DNA of 64,000 bases. It comes from a virus. Its lineage: Duplodnaviria; Heunggongvirae; Uroviricota; Caudoviricetes. Below the pieces are notes generated by a model. It was given only the letters and a program-made list of their open reading frames with translations, ran no database searches and was not told where the DNA came from. Position numbers and translations under genes: made by a program. This document shows positions 54,565-64,000 of the stretch, piece by piece. Location: the IMG/VR virus record IMGVR_UViG_2617270980_000003; one strand, given 5' to 3'. Position 1 is the stretch's first letter, and every line of letters starts with the position of its first letter.

Positions 54565-55578
54565 ATGACAATTAAGAAACTCGATGATGGTCGTTATGAA
54601 GTGGACATTAGACCTAGCGGACGCAACGGAAAACGCATCCGCAGGAAGTTTGACAAGAAAAGTGAGGCAGTGGCCTTTGAGAAGCACACGCAATACAACC
54701 ACCACAACAAGGATTGGTTAGCGAAGCCGACCGATAAAAGGCAACTTTCCGAATTGATTCAAATCTGGTGGGAACTCAAGGCAAAGCACGAGGAATGGGG
54801 AAAGTACAATCGGGGAAAGGTCGAGAAATTCGCGGCGATAACCGGTGATCCGTGCGCGTTTCAGATTACAAAGACGGTAATTAGCCAGTATGTTGCAGCT
54901 CGGCGAGGTGAAGGCGTTAAGCCATCTACCATCAATCGGGATCTGACATGCATCAGCGGAATGTTTACCGCTCTGATTGAGGCCGAGCTATACCATGGCG
55001 AACACCCGATAAGAGGACGTAAACGACTCAAAGAGGAGAAGCCCGAAACGGGCTATTTAACCAACGAGGAAATTACCGCCCTTTTCTCGCGGCTCGATGG
55101 TGACAATAAAAAAATAGCGGTTCTTTGCCTAAGCACGGGCGCTAGGTGGGGTGAAGCGGCAAAACTGAAAGCCGAGCACATCATCCATAATCGGGTGACG
55201 TTTGTTAAAACCAAAACGAACAAACCCCGAACGGTGCCAGTATCGGCAGAAGTATGTGAAATACTCACCAGCGTGAAGCGCGGCTTCCTGTTCCCGAATG
55301 CCGATTACACGTTGTTCCGGCAGGTACTGAAAGAGGTAAAGCCCGACCTGCCAGCAGGACAGGCAACCCATGCTCTACGGCACAGTTTTGCTACGCATTT
55401 CATGATTAACGGAGGAAGCATTATCACGCTACAAAGGATACTCGGTCACGCGCGCATAGAGCAGACAATGGTCTACGCGCACTTCGCGCCAGAGTATTTA
55501 CAAGATGCCGTAACACTCAATCCGTTAAAGGGCGGCATTGAACCCGAAAACGTCCACACAGTGTCCACACTCGGGTGA
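54565..55578 (+). CDS. int: tyrosine integrase (P2 Int-like)
   Basis: 337 aa; near-identical over long stretches to P2 Int as recalled (MTIKKLDDGRYEVDIRPSGRNGKRIRRKFDKKSEAVAFEK...HALRHSFATHFMINGGSIITLQRILGH.RIEQTMVYAHFAPEYLQDA). Confidence 0.95.
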   Translation: MTIKKLDDGRYEVDIRPSGRNGKRIRRKFDKKSEAVAFEKHTQYNHHNKDWLAKPTDKRQLSELIQIWWELKAKHEEWGKYNRGKVEKFAAITGDPCAFQITKTVISQYVAARRGEGVKPSTINRDLTCISGMFTALIEAELYHGEHPIRGRKRLKEEKPETGYLTNEEITALFSRLDGDNKKIAVLCLSTGARWGEAAKLKAEHIIHNRVTFVKTKTNKPRTVPVSAEVCEILTSVKRGFLFPNADYTLFRQVLKEVKPDLPAGQATHALRHSFATHFMINGGSIITLQRILGHARIEQTMVYAHFAPEYLQDAVTLNPLKGGIEPENVHTVSTLG

Positions 55579-55882
55579 TTTATAGCGGCTTTCAGTGGCT
55601 TTATGTGGTGCTCAAACCCGCATTACACCGCTGAAAGCCCGTATATCAAAGGGCTACCAACGCCCCCGATGGAGCCTTCATTTTCACTTTCTTAAATCTA
55701 ACGATAGACGGCTAACATTTAAGTATTGTGAAATATTATCAAATGTAATCATCATTGATTTACAAAAGATACATTTTGCCCCGAAAGGATTCCTGTCAGA
55801 AACATCAAAAGATGATGTTCTATACTGAGAACCATGGCAACACGGGCATCTAAAGTGAATATGGTTTGTAATATTTTCTACC

Positions 55883-56095
55883 TCAAAGTGCCACAACATG
55901 AACAGCCGCGGGGCCTTTAGGTCCGTTCTCAATACCAAATTCGACTTCCTGATTCTCAGTTAACGTTTTGAAATCGTTGCTCTGAATAGCTGAGAAATGG
56001 ACAAACACATCTTTGCTACCATCTTTCGGCGTGATGAAACCAAAACCTTTTTCAGGGTTAAACCATTTCACTAAACCAGTCATTTTGTTAGACAT
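55883..56095 (-). CDS. CspA-family cold shock protein (prophage-borne, cspI/cspB-like)
   Basis: [37 protein letters not shown] cold-shock domain. Confidence 0.9.
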
Positions 56096-56458
56096 CATTA
56101 TTACCTTTTGAAGAAGTTAGCCCTTGGGCAGAATGGTCCGAAAAAAAATATCAGAGAGAAAAACCAACAAGGAAATCTCAAGAGGTACAAATAATAAAAT
56201 TATAACAATGACTGCTTCAGATAATTTTGTAACAAACCAGAACACCATTAACGCATGATTAACCAACCATAGCAAGGATTACTTTTGTAAAGAAAAACAC
56301 ACGAATGAAACAATAGCTTTATTTATTAATAAAACGTGTCATTCTGTCTAATGACCTTTTATCTTACCCTTAAGATTTCAAGGATTTTGACTCATGGAAG
56401 AGTCCTTTTTATTTAAATTTCACATTCAGCGCTAAAAATAATCCGATTTAATATTAAT

Positions 56459-57486
<1,028 letters not shown>

Positions 57487-57807
57487 GGATATTTATCAGG
57501 ATTTATCGGCTTCAAATCCCCGGATATGTTAAATCTTACCTCACCAGTGATGGGCACTGGCGGGAGGGGGGTGTCAATCTGATAAACACAAAGGCGACTA
57601 TGGATTACACAAAACTACCTAAACAAACTTTTGCTGATTTAATCGCACTCAGGCAAGCAGTCGTAGCTCTAATCAACTTGTTGCCGGAGAAGGAAAAGGA
57701 ATTAGTTAAAGCGCTTCTTAACAGAACTGCCGCCGATTTTTCATCATATCCACTGACAGATGACCTTGCGGACCTTCCTGAATTAATTGCAGCGTCCGCC
57801 AATAAGC

Positions 57808-58359
57808 TTACTGAAGAGATTTACCCTCCTCAAAAATCTTCACAAAATTCCTGCGAGTAACTTCAATGCAATAATCGTAAAACGCCGCAAACTGCTCATC
57901 GCGGCGTTTTTTTTCATCTTCAGAAGGAATCAGCACCGACAATTTTTTATTCAGATCAGCGACGCTGCCCTCCAGTTTTTCAATGGGCGATTCAATATCA
58001 TCTTTTTCTGACCGCAATGCCGTCGGTGGCGTCTTCAGAGAACCAGTAATTCTTCCCGGTAGCTTTCCTTTGTAGGTTATCCACACATTCTGCGCCTCTA
58101 AAATTATGGGGCGCTTTTCCGGCGACTGCTCATCCCCTTCACATAACCCGGCAGCAACATCCAGGAAGACCTGTCTGATGCTCCTTCTGGCTGCTGCCTC
58201 ATAAAACTCCAGCGCGGCACCTTCAACACGGTCCAGCGAGATGTCCAGGTCAAAAATTTCACCGTCAAAGTGTTTTTTGTCCCGTAAGGCTACAGTTACC
58301 GCCACTTTATTCTCAAAATTGCGAACTCCTTTCACAACCAGTTCATAGTCTTGAGTCAT
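57808..58359 (-). CDS. hypothetical protein between holin and endolysin (YdfR/DUF1327-like position)
   Basis: ORF MTQDYELVVKGVRNFENKV... at the ydfR position of Qin-like lysis cassettes. Confidence 0.45.
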   Translation of the reverse strand: MTQDYELVVKGVRNFENKVAVTVALRDKKHFDGEIFDLDISLDRVEGAALEFYEAAARRSIRQVFLDVAAGLCEGDEQSPEKRPIILEAQNVWITYKGKLPGRITGSLKTPPTALRSEKDDIESPIEKLEGSVADLNKKLSVLIPSEDEKKRRDEQFAAFYDYCIEVTRRNFVKIFEEGKSLQ

Positions 58360-58363
58360 TGGA

Positions 58364-58579
58364 TTACTCTCTTCTCGCAACCTTACGCCTGTCTTCTTTA
58401 ATCTTGAAATAAAGGTTTGTCAGATACGTCAGCATGCCAAATACCAGACTACCCAATACACCTATTGCCGCCCACTGTGAGGGCGTGACTTTATCGAGCA
58501 ACTGTAAAAACCAGTAGCCAGCACTGCCTGCAGAGGTGCTGTAGGCGATGCCCGTTGTTAACTTATCCATGGATTTCAT
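58364..58579 (-). CDS. pinholin (phage 21 S-like, dual-start MKSM)
   Basis: [45 protein letters not shown]... matches S21 pinholin as recalled; paired with SAR endolysin. Confidence 0.85.
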
Positions 58580-58769
58580 AGCCTCACCTCCGCAGATAAC
58601 GGATGGTGTACACGGTTTGGTTCGAAGAAGGAAAGAAGTTACATTAGCGTAAGGCCCGAACATCTATTCAAAAAGAAAAACGCCAGCAATTATTCTGGCG
58701 TAGCTAAAAATATCGTATAATCTTACACTTCAAAAAATAACTTTATAAAATGCCATCACATCATATCTT

Positions 58770-59492
58770 CTAAGAAAATCTTGATAAATATTGGTGCGGA
58801 GGCACACCAAAATATCCTCTAAAAACACTTACAAAATATGATGCATTGTCATACCCGCATATTCCCGCCACCTTGCCGACAGTATGGTTACTGTAGATCA
58901 ATAATCTTTGCGCCATCATCATTCGTTCTTCAAGAATTAATTTACTAAACGATAATCCTTCGTCTTTTAATTTTCTTTTTAACAAACTCTCGCTCATATA
59001 TAATCTTGAAGATATATCACAAAGTCTCCATGACGCTGAGATATCCGAGTGAATAATAGCCTTAACTTTACAACCTAAGCTATTAAGACTTCCGAACAAA
59101 AAACTTTGCACTATTTTCTCTGAAGATAAGACAGCAAGACATGCAAGTGATATTTGATTTCTAACTACATCCACGGTTTTGCTATCACAATTCAAGCATG
59201 CAACCAAGTTCCTTAACAATGAAAAATCTTCACATTCTACTATCAAGTATGACGGATAAAACCTTCTTACAGAAAAAGGTGAGAGTGTGTAGTTTTTAAA
59301 GAAATCATTAACTGTTTTCTCCTCAATATCTACGATCATTAGATGATCTGTATTTGACGAAAAAAGATCTTTTAAATTGTATTCAATGAGGACAGCATTT
59401 CCTTTTTTAAACAAAATATCTTCTTTACCAATTCGGACACCAAACGAGTTCAACACCAAAATGATAGAACATATGTATGGCATATTATCCAC
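58770..59492 (-). CDS. AraC-family transcriptional regulator (AT-rich cargo)
   Basis: 240 aa; C-terminal AraC-type HTH (GYDNASYFVSVFRGYFGVPP); low-GC codon usage. Confidence 0.75.
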   Translation of the reverse strand: MDNMPYICSIILVLNSFGVRIGKEDILFKKGNAVLIEYNLKDLFSSNTDHLMIVDIEEKTVNDFFKNYTLSPFSVRRFYPSYLIVECEDFSLLRNLVACLNCDSKTVDVVRNQISLACLAVLSSEKIVQSFLFGSLNSLGCKVKAIIHSDISASWRLCDISSRLYMSESLLKRKLKDEGLSFSKLILEERMMMAQRLLIYSNHTVGKVAGICGYDNASYFVSVFRGYFGVPPHQYLSRFS

Positions 59493-59889
59493 CTGATATC
59501 ATTGGGGTTACACCAGGTAAGTATAGGTGGAAAATCAATATTCGCCAGTTCAACAATAAGGAAAATCTCATTGCATCACAACTATAAAACCATGTGTTTA
59601 ACTCACAAAAAACAAATCATTAAACTAATCTGTTATATTATAATAGCTGCGTGCAATAATAATATTATATGCTCTTTATATTCACTTGAAATATCTTCAT
59701 ATAAAAACAGATTGAATAAAATCTTTTGGGGCTGGTATGTTTACCAACATTAAATTGCATCTCAATGTTTTCTTTAGCGTGAACAGGATTTTTATAAAAA
59801 CTGACACTATGAGCATCATAGCGTAGTTTTTACGATTGTAAATATCCTGCATACAGGAACTCATCACTTTCAGATGATATCGCATACAG

Positions 59890-60849
59890 TTAATTCACCA
59901 TCAGTCTTAGAGCCAGTTCTTCCGGATAGGGATCGAAGTAATTCTGTGTAAGCAAGTAATCATTAGGATACTCACCCAGATAATGCTTCAGCAGAGTCAA
60001 CGGCGCAAGAAGAGGCAATGTGCCAAAGCGATAGTTAAGTATAACCTCGCTCAACTCTTTACGCTGGCGTGTACTTAAGTAATTACTAAAATACCCCTGT
60101 ATATGCATCAGCACATTCGTGTGATTTTTACGTGATGCTGGTTTTCTGAGAATCGCCATCAGATTATCACGATACACCTCAAAGTATGATTCAAGGTCCG
60201 CCCACTCGTGTATTGCAGCCACAAATGGTCCCATATCTTTATAGCCTGCCTGGCTATGCGCCAACAACTGAAGCTTATAACGACTATGAAAAGCTAATAA
60301 CTCTCTTCTTGATAATTTCTCCTTGTAAAGGTGATTGAGCTCATGCAAAGCAAAAACTCTTTCAATAAAATTCTCACGAAGCACTGGATCATGTAATCGC
60401 CCATCCTCTTCAACCGGTAGCCAGGAAAACTTTTCCATCAAAGTGCTCGTAAATAGTCCCACTCCATCTTTACGACCTCGATTACCATTTTCATCATAGA
60501 CACGCACGCGCTCCATGCCACAGCTGGGAGATTTAGCACAAACCACAAACCCCGATACATCCTTTAATTTGTCCATATAAGAACGACTAAACTCTGTCAT
60601 TCTCTCTGTCACATCCTCATTCTGGTCGTGGCTGAAACACATCCGTATATTTCCTTGCTTCGAGCGCACAAGTCGTAGAGCAGGACGCGGAACTGGCAGC
60701 CCTATAGCCATTTCCGGACATACTGGTCTGAATGTTACCCATTCCACTAATTTGTCCATTAAAAAGTCATCTCTTTTGTGACCACCATCAAAACGAACAG
60801 CAGAACCGCCCAAACAACCGCTGATCCCAATCACAGGTTTTTTTATCAT
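59890..60849 (-). CDS. DUF523 (TudS-like) / DUF1722 fusion protein, YbgA-like
   Basis: N-terminal GISGCLGGSAVRFDGGHK... (DUF523-like Cys motif region) and long C-terminal helical part. Confidence 0.6.
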   Translation of the reverse strand: MIKKPVIGISGCLGGSAVRFDGGHKRDDFLMDKLVEWVTFRPVCPEMAIGLPVPRPALRLVRSKQGNIRMCFSHDQNEDVTERMTEFSRSYMDKLKDVSGFVVCAKSPSCGMERVRVYDENGNRGRKDGVGLFTSTLMEKFSWLPVEEDGRLHDPVLRENFIERVFALHELNHLYKEKLSRRELLAFHSRYKLQLLAHSQAGYKDMGPFVAAIHEWADLESYFEVYRDNLMAILRKPASRKNHTNVLMHIQGYFSNYLSTRQRKELSEVILNYRFGTLPLLAPLTLLKHYLGEYPNDYLLTQNYFDPYPEELALRLMVN

Positions 60850-61041
60850 TTCCTCCCCCTTGACTAATTCATTAACACATAAACTTTGTAGTGCACGGAC
60901 TAAATTGCCTTTCTGGCTTCATCACTGACAATTTTTCTGTTATTGACTATTCCTAATATAGTAGGAAAGTTCTTTAAGTGATCGGTCGTACTCATCTATC
61001 TTTCATACTTACTCTCAACTATCAAAAGTACAGGATTTATT

Positions 61042-61566
61042 ATGAAGTTATGGCCTGTGTTGACTGGCATTGCACTCTCTTTCACTCTTATAGCATGTAA
61101 GGCCCCGACACCACCTAAAGGTGTGCAGCCGATTACAAATTTTGACGCCAACCGCTACCTCGGAAAATGGTATGAAATAGCTCGCCTCGAGAACTGGTTC
61201 GAACGTGGTCTGGAACAGGTCAGCGCTACTTATGAAAAACGGAACGACGGAGGGATTCGCGTACTTAACCGTGGATACGATCCAACGAAAAACAAATGGA
61301 GCGAGAGCGAAGGTAAAGCATACTTTACTGGAGATACTAAAACTGCAGCGTTGAAAGTTTCGTTTTTTGGCCCCTTCTATGGTGGCTATAATGTAATCAA
61401 ACTGGATGATGAGTATAAGTATGCTCTTGTCAGTGGTCCGAACAGAGAATACCTATGGATTCTGGCAAGGACCCAAACTATTCCAGATAATGTAAAAGCA
61501 GACTATGTGCGTACCGCTCAAAAGTTGGGATTCAATGTCAATGAACTATTATGGGTTAAACAATAA
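61042..61566 (+). CDS. outer-membrane lipocalin (Blc-like lipoprotein)
   Basis: Lipoprotein signal (LIAC), NFDANRYLGKWYEIARLENWFERGLE, KVSFFGPFYGGYNVI matches E. coli Blc as recalled. Confidence 0.85.
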   Translation: MKLWPVLTGIALSFTLIACKAPTPPKGVQPITNFDANRYLGKWYEIARLENWFERGLEQVSATYEKRNDGGIRVLNRGYDPTKNKWSESEGKAYFTGDTKTAALKVSFFGPFYGGYNVIKLDDEYKYALVSGPNREYLWILARTQTIPDNVKADYVRTAQKLGFNVNELLWVKQ

Positions 61567-61593
61567 AATCCCCACCCGAAATGATACTTATTA

Positions 61594-61621
61594 GAAAAAA
61601 ACCAGCCTTTGGGGAGGCTGG
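61594..61621 (-). terminator. intrinsic terminator downstream of Q (candidate tR' of late promoter pR')
   Basis: Hairpin CCAGCCT-TTGGGG-AGGCTGG followed on the minus strand by T7; about 100 bp downstream of Q stop. Confidence 0.5.
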
Positions 61622-61721
61622 CTAAATCAGGAAACAAGCTGTTATATGATAATAACTACGTTGCGATTCCAACATTTAAAATGTTAGACTAATGAAAATC
61701 AGACAGCAACTTTTCCTTTAA

Positions 61722-62114
61722 TTATTTCGAACAATCAGCATCCATCTCCAATCGGAGATCCAACACCATCAGCATGCCCTCCACTACGCCCTCAGCTTTC
61801 TGGAGCATCCTGCCAACCCAACAATCAGATCGCCCATGCTTACGTGCAAGCGCCATAAAAGTCATGCCGCCGACATAATAGTCCACCAATAAATCATGTA
61901 AATCGCTGTTGTTTTTTTTCAGGCGAGCCATACATTCACAAATGATCATCGCGTCATCGTCACAGCATTGCGGACGAGATCTTACTTTTGAAGGAATTAA
62001 TCCCTTAAAACCGGCGGCAATGGACGACCAGGTCACATCTTCATGATTATTAGCCGCCCATGCCCCCCAACGCTCAAGAACCATCTGAATATCACGCATC
62101 AACTTACTCCACAA
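61722..62114 (-). CDS. late antiterminator Q (QuuQ/QuuD-like)
   Basis: [34 protein letters not shown]... matches E. coli prophage Quu proteins as recalled. Confidence 0.85.
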
Positions 62115-62116
62115 AA

Positions 62117-63166
62117 TTAGGCCAGCACACCAATTGCCAGCGCGCGATCGATAAATCGAAAAATCAGCTCCAGTTGGGAGCCATACTTCTCTTCAAATGC
62201 CACGGTATCCGTATGCAACTCGTCGTGATGCTTTCTGCACAAAGGCAACACAAAGAGATCATGTGCTTTGGTTCCCATTCCGCCCTGCCCGTGACCAATC
62301 AGATGATGCGGATCGTCGGCTGGCATACCGCAGCAAGCACACGGCTGTGTCTTAACCCAGCGTGTGTATTTCTCCTTAACCCAACGGTGACGTTTAGGCA
62401 GCTTCATGAAAGATTCCGGAGACTCTGGATCAACGGTGATGCTTACCACCGTCTTTTCCTGTGATGGGTTTTGTTGCTGGTGGGCGTGAGGCAACGGTGC
62501 AAGATTTTTTGTGCGCTGTTTCAATATGCTGGTGGCGGTCTGCTCTCCCGGTACGATGTCGCTTTCGCGGTACACCGAGCAGTTTTTTTCCGCTGGTAAT
62601 CCCAGCGAGCGACGTAATACCACTTCCGGTAGCGCGTCCGCCACCTGATTGCGGACCGCCCACCAGGATAATTCAGCCAGAGATAATTCACGCTCCTGCG
62701 TACCGCTTATTGCGTGACCGATGACGTCAATCATCCATGCTGACAGGTTTTGATGAGCAAGTTGCTCGAGTGATTCGGATGTCTGGTCACGCAGCTGGTT
62801 GTCGCAGTGCCAGCACAACACCATTGCGCCGGTACCATAACGGTGAATAACGGTTTCGCTGTGATGATAATCGCCGTGTGGCCACTGGCAGGATTTAATA
62901 TGGCGCAACAGCCAGTCAGACAATGCACCAGCACCACCAGCAGCACGAATTACCCGTGCGTTACTGAAAAACGGCAGCAATGTTTTGTCTTCCACCAGCG
63001 GCTGGCGAACGGCAGGAACGACCCCGGACGGCAGATTACGCATGCTTTTCGGTTCCGGCTCCACCAGTACCCGGGTATTGTGGAATACCGGCATGGATTC
63101 ACGGCCCGGCTTAACGACCACCAGCCCGAGTTCCGGTACCAGAACAGGTCGAAGTAATACCCGCAC
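62117..63166 (-). CDS. DUF968-family protein (YdfU-like)
   Basis: 349 aa directly upstream of Q; Cys/His cluster ([43 protein letters not shown]). Confidence 0.7.
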
Positions 63167-63167
63167 G

Positions 63168-63446
63168 TTACCTCCAGATGCGTTGCTGGAATGTACGGGA
63201 CGGACGCGGTGGGCGTTCGGAGTAAGGCAATCTGACTGAGATTATCCAGTGACGGTAGTCGAGACTAAGAGCTTTCTTAACCTCGTATCCGCGCCTGCGG
63301 TAACACTGAATTATCCATTCAGCCTGCTCTTCAGTGCATGGAGGGTGCTGGAACCATTCAGACTTGAATGCGTGAGAATACCGCTCGTGCGTGCAGGCAA
63401 GAACGGGCGAATTATCAGAATTGTAATATTTTACGTTGCGTGCCAT
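63168..63446 (-). CDS. small hypothetical protein (Rem-like position)
   Basis: 92-aa ORF upstream of the DUF968 gene. Confidence 0.45.
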   Translation of the reverse strand: MARNVKYYNSDNSPVLACTHERYSHAFKSEWFQHPPCTEEQAEWIIQCYRRRGYEVKKALSLDYRHWIISVRLPYSERPPRPSRTFQQRIWR

Positions 63447-63512
63447 CGGTTTTCTCCGGTGGCACGGTGTTACTCAGCGGGAGTTCAGCCCCGCGCAAGA
63501 TTGTAGATGAGT

Positions 63513-63710
63513 TTATTCTTCTGCAAAAGCTGAAAAGCCTGCTTTTATTCCGATCTCTTTCAGTGCCTGTAATGAAGTGACAAACTCACCTTCGCGCAAG
63601 ATAAATCCGTCTGTCACTCGACCATCCACAAAATTAATTAACGCAGCCCCATTCTTTCGCAAACACATAATGCGGTAATGACTAACAAGATTTCCATTTT
63701 CAACGCACAC
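63513..63710 (-). CDS. hypothetical ORF abutting the IS end (possible 5'-truncated gene)
   Basis: 65-aa ORF whose start lies 8 bp from the IS terminus. Confidence 0.25.
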   Translation of the reverse strand: MCVENGNLVSHYRIMCLRKNGAALINFVDGRVTDGFILREGEFVTSLQALKEIGIKAGFSAFAEE

Positions 63711-63717
63711 AGCATAG

Positions 63718-64000
63718 TGAACCGCCCCGGAAATCCTGGAGACTAAACTCCCTGAGAAAGAGGTAAACAGGATGACTAAAAATACTCGTTTTTCCCCCGA
63801 AGTCCGTCAGCGGGCGATTCGTATGGTTCTGGAAAGTCAGGATGAATATGACTCACAGTGGGCGGCAATTTGTTCCATTGCCCCAAAGATTGGCTGTACG
63901 CCGGAGACTCTGCGTGTCTGGGTTCGCCAGCATGAGCGGGATACCGGGGGCGGTGATGGTGGGCTCACCAGCGCTGAACGTCAGCGTCTGAAAGAGCTGG
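63718..64000 (+). mobile_element. IS3-family insertion sequence (IS629/IS3411-like), left end; continues beyond window
   Basis: Terminal TGAACCGCCCCGG... and OrfA N-terminus [57 protein letters not shown]. Confidence 0.85.
63772..64000 (+). CDS. IS3-family transposase OrfA (HTH), partial
   Basis: ATG at 63772 with AGAGG upstream; open to window end; matches IS3-group OrfA as recalled. Confidence 0.85.

Follow-up and report, generated by a model that had tools for sequence, protein, structure and literature searches.

In a 64,000-nucleotide stretch of DNA from IMG/VR virus record IMGVR_UViG_2617270980_000003 (hereafter the window), the interval between the antiterminator gene Q and the holin gene of a Qin-like cryptic Escherichia coli prophage is probably a two-module accessory moron cassette fixed in one lambdoid lineage, in which a pair formed by a blc-like lipocalin gene and rudS is combined with a gene for an AraC-type regulator. 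The interval, positions 58580-61720, is the exact gap between the holin start (58579) and the Q stop (61722), and the order on the minus strand is YdfU, Q, the leader with a tR'-like terminator, the lipocalin gene (on the plus strand), a TudS+DUF1722 fusion, a spacer, the AraC gene, a second terminator and the holin gene. An earlier note on this DNA had named a lipocalin on the opposite strand, a DUF523/DUF1722 fusion and an AraC regulator; all three identities are borne out by Pfam and NCBIfam and are here placed to the base, the genes being strong family matches rather than chance open reading frames (ORFs). The reading is based on what the sequences show, namely gene identities, conservation, synteny, the origin of the pair and the terminators.

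The interval has the properties of a moron, as it lies between conserved phage genes, has a GC content of 28–44% against 50% for the window, and possesses a terminator of its own. GC content is 33.5% for the AraC gene, in agreement with the low-GC regulator described earlier, 43.2% for rudS, 43.8% for blc and 28–36% for the spacers, compared with 50.3% for the whole window. Between diverged alleles (dS up to 0.6), the ratio of nonsynonymous to synonymous substitution rates (dN/dS) is 0.07–0.25 for all three cargo genes, indicating purifying selection. Moreover, all three AraC allele classes (100%, 85% and 76% amino acid identity) show the gene order Q-blc-rudS-AraC-holin, in chromosomal prophages at different sites as well as in the viable phages IdasGreatGrand and 1H12, and 12 phage records contain the AraC protein at 76% identity or more.

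The cassette is also widespread. In a sample of 5426 complete E. coli genomes, with counts taken at a query coverage of at least 80%, the whole cassette (3.9-kb query) is found in at least 952, about one in five, and the AraC region in 976, while the blc-rudS pair (1.7-kb query) gives matches in 1151 genomes, 1047 of them at that coverage, with up to three copies per genome. Such a cassette is ordinary but well preserved and does not represent a new kind of system: the enzyme family has been characterized, including a phage member almost identical to the window protein, and the type of Blc paralogue and the slot for a regulator of the PatE/PsrA/AppY type have been known. New are how common the cassette is in E. 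coli, the shared chromosomal source of its blc-rudS pair, and a repeat of the late leader. As a separate observation, two short contigs (L059 and L064) filed under a metagenome-assembled genome of Candidatus Nanosynbacter (Saccharibacteria) carry the cassette at 92–98% protein identity, which is almost certainly a binning error.

The middle gene, rudS (59890-60849, minus strand), encodes a TudS(DUF523)+DUF1722 fusion, for which assignment as a tRNA 4-thiouridine (s4U) desulfidase is based on Pfam matches and on identity to RudS_vir. PF04463 (2-thiour_desulf/DUF523) covers residues 7–149 (5.8e-40) and PF08349 (DUF1722) residues 192–309 (9.4e-40); the cluster ligands Cys12 (in GISGCLGG), Cys44 and Cys110 are kept and are the same as those listed for RudS_vir and RudS_ST, and the catalytic motifs Cys44-Pro-Glu46 (CPE) and Ser107-Pro-Ser109-Cys110 (SPSC) align with TudS 6Z92. 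Over 319 residues, the protein is 92% identical to gp66 (H3V29_gp66) of Escherichia phage 1H12, which is the RudS_vir of Jamontas et al. 2024 (PMC11417400). In that study, overexpression of any of six RudS genes, including that of RudS_vir, lowered the s4U of E. coli tRNA 4.7- to 26-fold, no comparable drop was obtained with TudS alone or YbgA alone, and RudS_KT shortened the growth delay after ultraviolet A (UVA) from ~105 to ~60 min; the overexpression experiments were done in BL21(DE3), and E. coli was treated as lacking RudS. Because of this close homology to a tested enzyme, the function of the window gene can be regarded as known, and its product is predicted to be a [4Fe-4S] desulfidase converting tRNA 4-thiouridine to uridine. 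The middle gene can therefore be identified as the already characterized RudS, a point that the earlier note had missed.

It follows that the published view of E. coli as a species without RudS is true for K-12 and not for the species, given that at least 1047 of the 5426 complete genomes have the gene on prophages. Prophage rudS should be taken into account when strains are compared for near-UV growth delay, s4U levels or the stringent response.

The lipocalin gene (61042-61566, plus strand), antisense to the late operon, encodes a Blc-like outer-membrane lipoprotein lipocalin (Lipocalin_2, 7.5e-43, 146 bits in Pfam) that scores above the NCBIfam cutoff for the Blc subfamily (312.6 vs 267 bits). 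Its lipobox, LIAC with Cys19, was read directly from the sequence (MKLWPVLTGIALSFTLIAC followed by K) and aligned to the lipobox of K-12 Blc. The protein is 59% identical to K-12 Blc, compared with 68–80% to lipocalins linked to rudS in other Enterobacteriaceae, and by this measure it is not orthologous to the product of the ampC-adjacent chromosomal blc.

The origin of the pair can be read from a survey of one genome per species, in which 62 loci outside E. coli were found to encode RudS at 66–76% identity, in Citrobacter, Enterobacter, Leclercia, Kluyvera, Klebsiella, Pectobacterium and other genera. At 41 of the 62 loci, the strand opposite to rudS encodes a lipocalin (68–80% identical) within 2 kb upstream of it, and none of these 41 has a match to Q or holin; ordinary chromosomal genes flank both of the loci that were scanned for neighbors (Enterobacter cloacae and Citrobacter sedlakii). 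In E. cloacae (L028, 3021-5960), blc is followed by divergent genes for a MerR regulator with MlrA domains, a transthyretin/HIUase-like protein and RudS. In C. sedlakii, 188 bp separate blc from a divergent rudS, and no regulator gene adjoins the pair. The corresponding divergent intergenic region of the window (60850-61041; 192 bp, 34% GC) cannot be aligned with that of Citrobacter, and no shared operator is readable from the two. In Enterobacteriaceae chromosomes the pair is common, and an MlrA-like MerR regulator usually accompanies it. The simplest history would be that a phage took up this divergent chromosomal pair in a single capture, without the MerR regulator. The chromosomal linkage at 41 of 62 loci, together with an identity of just 59% to E. 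coli Blc, marks the phage lipocalin as the rudS-linked paralogue, and lipocalin and RudS are accordingly classed by their relatives as one captured pair rather than independent morons, which had also escaped the earlier note. The RudS paper notes the MerR neighbor of rudS in E. cloacae, and the word 'lipocalin' has 0 occurrences in it (PMC11417400); the linkage of a lipocalin to the presumed light-responsive rudS locus is thus absent from that account.

The second module, at 58770-59483 on the minus strand, encodes an AraC/XylS regulator of 237 amino acids belonging to the GadX/YdeO/PatE/PsrA group (HTH_18 3.1e-16 and HTH_AraC 6.1e-11 in Pfam). Its coding sequence begins with the ATG at 59483, downstream of the Shine-Dalgarno (SD) sequence AGGTGG; the GTG at 59492 falls inside that SD sequence and is not the start, and the RefSeq protein has 237 amino acids as well. 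The earlier note had allowed that the regulator might be a pseudogene or a close orthologue of a core chromosomal regulator, and it is neither. The gene is intact, with dN/dS of 0.21–0.25 between alleles at dS of 0.33–0.60, and the exact protein occurs on 603 contigs of a public collection under generic names only; protein searches returned relatives in E. coli only. Full-length identity is 85% to the allele of phage IdasGreatGrand and 76% to that of phage 1H12, 47% to Sakai ECs_0287 (the PatE candidate), 38–39% to PsrA (Sakai ECs_1087), 34% to GadW, 30% to AppY, 28–29% to YdeO, and 26% to both GadX and EnvY, so that the homology check proposed earlier leads to prophage proteins, the PatE candidate and PsrA, as the nearest characterized regulators. 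ECs_0287 was taken as PatE (z0321) because it is the sole AraC gene in prophage Sp1.

As judged from BLASTP to PsrA and YdeO and from alignment, the protein is colinear with its subgroup over the full length, the small N-terminal domain included, and it shares with the subgroup the recognition-helix motifs SESLLKxKLK and SYFxxxFR. In NCBIfam, the model for YdeO covers residues 4–234; since its scores are far under the equivalog cutoffs, both for YdeO (112.3 vs 348 bits) and for GadX (89.8 vs 500 bits), the protein is an orthologue of neither. The AlphaFold model (predicted local distance difference test 88, predicted template-modeling score 0.81) has its best fold matches in CsvR, Rns and ToxT over the full length, with probability 1.0 and a template-modeling (TM) score of ~0.45, a value explained by differently oriented domains, and the DNA-binding domain of GadX fits the model with a TM score of 0.86–0.89 (normalized to the GadX chain) at 40% identity. 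On these comparisons, the AraC protein is placed as a further allele family within a known subgroup and not as a core-gene orthologue.

Members of this subgroup have been linked to acid resistance. PatE and PsrB act at hdeA and gadE, and PsrA and PsrB act on type III secretion via GadE and YhiF (PMC10877973, PMC8565820), while AppY binds gadE, slp, gadY, adiC and glsA and allows cells to survive at pH 2.5 in a gadE-dependent manner (PMC10057817). PatE, PsrA/PsrB and AppY are thereby activators of gadE/AR2, and activation of gadE/hdeAB promoters is known for PatE, PsrB, AppY and YdeO. As PatE, PsrA, AppY, YdeO and GadX/W all act on the gadE network, the most likely output of the window protein would be the gadE/hdeAB acid-resistance network, as for its relatives. 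The reprogramming of host genes put forward in the earlier note would likewise be expected from the relatives PatE, PsrA/PsrB and AppY. A widespread prophage AraC protein of this type adds to the picture of prophages plugging AraC-type activators into the gadE network, and it is a candidate for explaining why commensal and environmental E. coli strains differ in their resistance to acid.

The signals that surround the cargo genes are well conserved. The Q gene (61722-62114, minus strand) encodes an antiterminator of the Q21/Q933W family (PF06530, 8e-51; RefSeq start 62099, 125 amino acids, 'antiterminator Q family protein') that matches the Q21 structures 6P18/6JNX by sequence (E 5e-9). Immediately after Q, a stretch of 155 bp shows 95% conservation in four copies of the cassette and ends in a strong terminator. 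Directly after Q, a leader with a candidate late promoter occupies 61624-61721 (minus strand; 95% mean column identity in the four copies); it is designated pR'-like because it occupies the position of pR' in the canonical arrangement, where the Q gene is followed by pR', a sigma-dependent pause element and a terminator (bioRxiv 10.1101/651190), and its promoter-like hexamers are weak only. The tR'-like intrinsic terminator that follows (61593-61623, minus strand), composed of AGCCAGCC, a loop, GGCTGG and a T run, has a 9-bp stem with 5 G-C pairs, is invariant in all four copies, and is directional because the T run is on the minus strand only. Another intrinsic terminator (58669-58701, minus strand; 7-bp stem, 5 G-C pairs, T run) lies between the AraC gene and the holin gene and is kept in all three cassette alleles with only one loop change, while its flanks diverge. 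In total, the interval has 7 terminator-like sites, against 2.6 ± 1.9 expected. The earlier note associates the slot with highly expressed morons such as the Shiga toxin genes of Stx phages. Expression of that kind is doubtful here: the lipocalin gene runs against the late transcript, and a terminator of its own closes the AraC gene.

The spacer between rudS and the AraC gene, ~400 bp of 31% GC, contains two further elements. A candidate AraC promoter, TTTACA-16-TATGAT (59815-59842, minus strand), is located just past the rudS stop, has a 10/12 consensus match and is near-invariant across the three alleles despite diverging flanks. In addition, a degenerate second copy of the late leader is present at 59614-59652 (minus strand), ~130–170 nt upstream of the AraC start. 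The 39-nt leader stretch at 61624-61661, ACGTAGTTATTATCATATAACAGCTTGTTTCCTGATTT, stops exactly where the tR' hairpin begins, and the copy, ACGCAGCTATTATAATATAACAGATTAGTTTAATGATTT, contains a perfect TATAAT in place of the TATCAT of the leader, and no terminator hairpin. The Smith-Waterman score of the repeat is 41, against 18.9 ± 2.4 for shuffled sequences, whose maximum was 29 (0 of 500 reaching 41). Between the two copies lie tR', blc and rudS. The IdasGreatGrand allele has the repeat as well, and in 1H12 most of it is missing. Recombination may have left the repeat as a scar upon insertion of blc-rudS between a late promoter and an older AraC moron; alternatively, a promoter or pause site may have been duplicated without the terminator, the duplicate now driving the AraC gene. 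The leader repeat excepted, motifs common to the two regulatory regions are short AT-rich chance matches only.

Two other features of the spacer were considered. A 62-codon ORF at 59697-59885 was discarded as a gene, having no family match and a frame broken by indels between alleles. An SD-masking hairpin in the 5' untranslated region of the AraC gene is a weak candidate at best, for its predicted stability does not exceed that of shuffled sequences (z of −0.9 to −1.2) and it is lacking in PatE and PsrA. The heptamer UCCACCU at 59525-59531 can pair with the SD segment AGGUGGA at 59488-59494, both arms being invariant in the three alleles while the loop differs, and this pairing (59488-59531) possibly serves translational control.

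From these elements we infer promoters, an expression pattern, AraC targets and a benefit to phage or host, as follows. In the lysogen, polymerase from the late promoter would halt at the tR'-like terminator without Q. As blc is antisense to the late operon, it requires a promoter of its own, from which it would be read in the manner of lysogenic-conversion genes such as bor, and the lipocalin would be exported as an outer-membrane lipoprotein. The rudS and AraC genes would probably be read in the lysogen from local promoters, with 59815-59842 as the best candidate for the latter, and the pre-holin terminator would keep lysogenic AraC transcription out of the lysis genes. Upon induction, Q-modified polymerase would pass all terminators, and of the late genes in sense orientation it would transcribe rudS and the AraC gene first, before lysis. 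Cross-linking of tRNA by near-UV light is known to cause growth delay and the stringent response; by lowering tRNA s4U, RudS should blunt such cross-linking, and the AraC protein would most likely activate gadE/hdeAB acid resistance.

A bolder version of this scheme is improbable in our estimation, namely that the cassette is a 'sunlight and stomach' kit, in which blc-rudS constitutes a near-UV module, rudS as the first late gene sustains translation in prophages induced by solar UV, and the AraC gene, driven by the leader duplicate, wires in gadE acid resistance. If it were true, about a fifth of E. coli strains would gain an s4U-erasing capacity that the species is said to lack.

Several points weigh against the reading proposed here, in whole or in part. 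RudS cannot undo tRNA cross-links already formed, and for this reason a benefit of rudS upon UV induction is conjecture. With respect to the regulator, ECs_0287 is mapped to PatE as a candidate by its position in Sp1 rather than by a locus-tag table; an identity of 47% to PatE does not allow the targets of the window protein to be taken for granted, and the relatives have other targets too, such as hya, app and nhaR for AppY and type III secretion via GadE for PsrA. Promoter-like sites occur in the interval at chance level (13 vs 10.6 ± 3.2 expected), so every promoter assignment is provisional. Furthermore, the insertion sequences (IS) IS1, IS2 or IS3 interrupt the cassette in many top matches: in B-DolR, an E. 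coli B derivative (L079, NZ_CP117044.1, 4001-6221), an IS3 element divides rudS, the AraC and lipocalin genes being intact, and the AraC gene has been lost next to IS1 in strain GSH8M-2. Because IS hits and losses are so frequent, the cassette is dispensable, at least in cryptic prophages.

These insertions would be readily explained if the cassette had no function and were decaying in cryptic prophages, kept silent by H-NS and without consequence for host or phage. The window prophage is itself defective, with a P2-like prophage inserted, and the cassette is AT-rich, as typical H-NS targets are. Such decay is nevertheless very unlikely, as it is at odds with dN/dS of 0.07–0.25 in all three genes between alleles at dS up to 0.6, with conserved terminators and leader, with intact cassettes in plaque-forming or inducible phages, and with the enzymatic activity of RudS_vir in vivo. 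Slightly less improbable, though still doubtful, is a division of labor in which the AraC protein is a local cassette regulator that has replaced the MerR/MlrA-like control of blc-rudS and does not act on host acid-resistance genes. In Enterobacter a MerR gene separates blc from rudS, and this gene is lacking in the phage pair. The pair and the AraC gene are nearly always inherited together, as the 976, 1047 and 952 genomes with the AraC region, blc-rudS and the whole cassette indicate, and the AraC gene keeps its place while diverging to 76% identity. However, PatE and PsrA reside in prophages without blc or rudS and have distant host genes as targets, the pair in C. sedlakii has no adjacent regulator, and the blc/rudS intergenic and AraC upstream regions have no motif in common beyond the AT-rich chance level.

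It has also to be considered whether the lipocalin alone is a lysogenic-conversion surface protein like Bor, Lom or Cor, which would confer serum resistance, repair the envelope or mask receptors against superinfection, and which would be paired with rudS for historical reasons alone. The gene is read against the late operon, as is bor in lambda-like phages, the protein carries a lipoprotein signal with a lipobox, and it has no PADLOC match and hence belongs to no known defense family. We regard this as unlikely, since the same lipocalin subgroup is linked to rudS at 41 of 62 chromosomal loci without any phage context, and that linkage argues for a shared physiological role before capture. A cassette made of a captured blc-rudS pair and an AraC regulator is thus the preferred reading.

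Beyond the interval, the window is that of a Qin-like element. DUF968/YdfU is encoded at 62117-63166 (minus strand; ORF listing with Pfam/NCBIfam scans), and the first lysis gene is the holin gene essQ of the phage-21 S type (58364-58579, minus strand; PF04971, 8.9e-34; 71 amino acids in RefSeq), beyond which the ORF listing and the Pfam/NCBIfam scans give DUF1327/YdfR, lysozyme, Rz and cspI. In strain 127, an identical segment lies at the K-12 Qin site, adjoining rspB. A P2-like prophage of ~32 kb occupies window positions 23634-55658, where it interrupts the Qin-like prophage and is flanked by the ynfN and ynfQ regions, with P2-family capsid, portal and terminase genes and an integrase gene at 54565-55578; an insert-free reference strain is colinear across the gap, the junctions overlapping by 14 bp (L001, 9360-9373). 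The nin region of the same prophage family carries a second phage tRNA-modification gene, queH (epoxyqueuosine reductase QueH), which is partial in strain 127 (L001, 16946-17383) and of full length in E. coli B (L079, 9722-10387). An 86-codon ORF at 57600-57860 (plus strand), antisense to the lysis cassette between the DUF1327 and lysozyme genes, matches PHROG 2572 (1.9e-52, unknown function) and is hypothetical in RefSeq. At 55837-56253 (minus strand), a cspA-type RNA thermoregulator (Rfam RF01766, 109.8 bits vs a gathering score of 78) extends over cspI together with the 5' untranslated region of this gene; it is the only match above the gathering score in an Rfam search of 55000-64000 at relaxed threshold and lies outside the interval, and at the terminator Rfam gave a sub-threshold chance match only. 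None of the three cargo proteins has a defense-family match in PADLOC, and all three belong to unknown-function families in PHROGs. A literature search by protein accession returned no paper on the AraC or the lipocalin protein, for which the databases searched hold no specific name.

That the Q-holin gap is a moron slot, as the earlier note had proposed, agrees with the different cargo that other phages and prophages hold there: cspF/cspB next to a different Q gene in K-12 Qin, nmpC in DLP12, psrA with tRNA genes in Sakai Sp4, and a psrA-like gene with tRNA genes and stx2 in a Stx2k phage. An AraC regulator in this slot therefore has precedents in psrA and its Stx2k relative. Like stx, cspB/cspF and nmpC, the window cargo lies directly downstream of Q/pR'/tR', is atypical in GC content, and has rudS and the AraC gene in sense orientation, whereas it differs in comprising three genes, one of them antisense, and in having its own conserved pre-holin terminator and no tRNA genes, none being present across the whole window although Stx phages and Sp4 carry them in the comparable slot. 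As for the lipocalin, it resembles the ampC-adjacent Blc of E. coli in its Lipocalin_2 fold family, lipoprotein signal and length (174 vs 177 amino acids), but it is a second, phage-borne paralogue whose true relatives are in Enterobacter, Leclercia and Citrobacter (68–80%). RudS is 319 amino acids long in both the window and phage 1H12, with the same ligands and motifs and the same position in the Q-blc-rudS-AraC-holin cassette, the difference being that the window copy resides in a cryptic chromosomal prophage. The regulator belongs to the same AraC subgroup as AppY of DLP12 and YdeO, GadX and GadW of K-12, with the same recognition-helix motifs, yet at 26–34% identity it is an orthologue of none of them. 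It is closest in kind to PatE, PsrA and PsrB of enterohemorrhagic E. coli (EHEC) O157:H7, which are likewise two-domain proteins encoded by AT-rich prophage genes, psrA also lying between Q and the lysis genes; it differs from them in being at most 47% identical, in having no tRNA, effector or pch genes beside its gene, in occurring mainly in non-EHEC strains, and in being almost always linked to blc-rudS.

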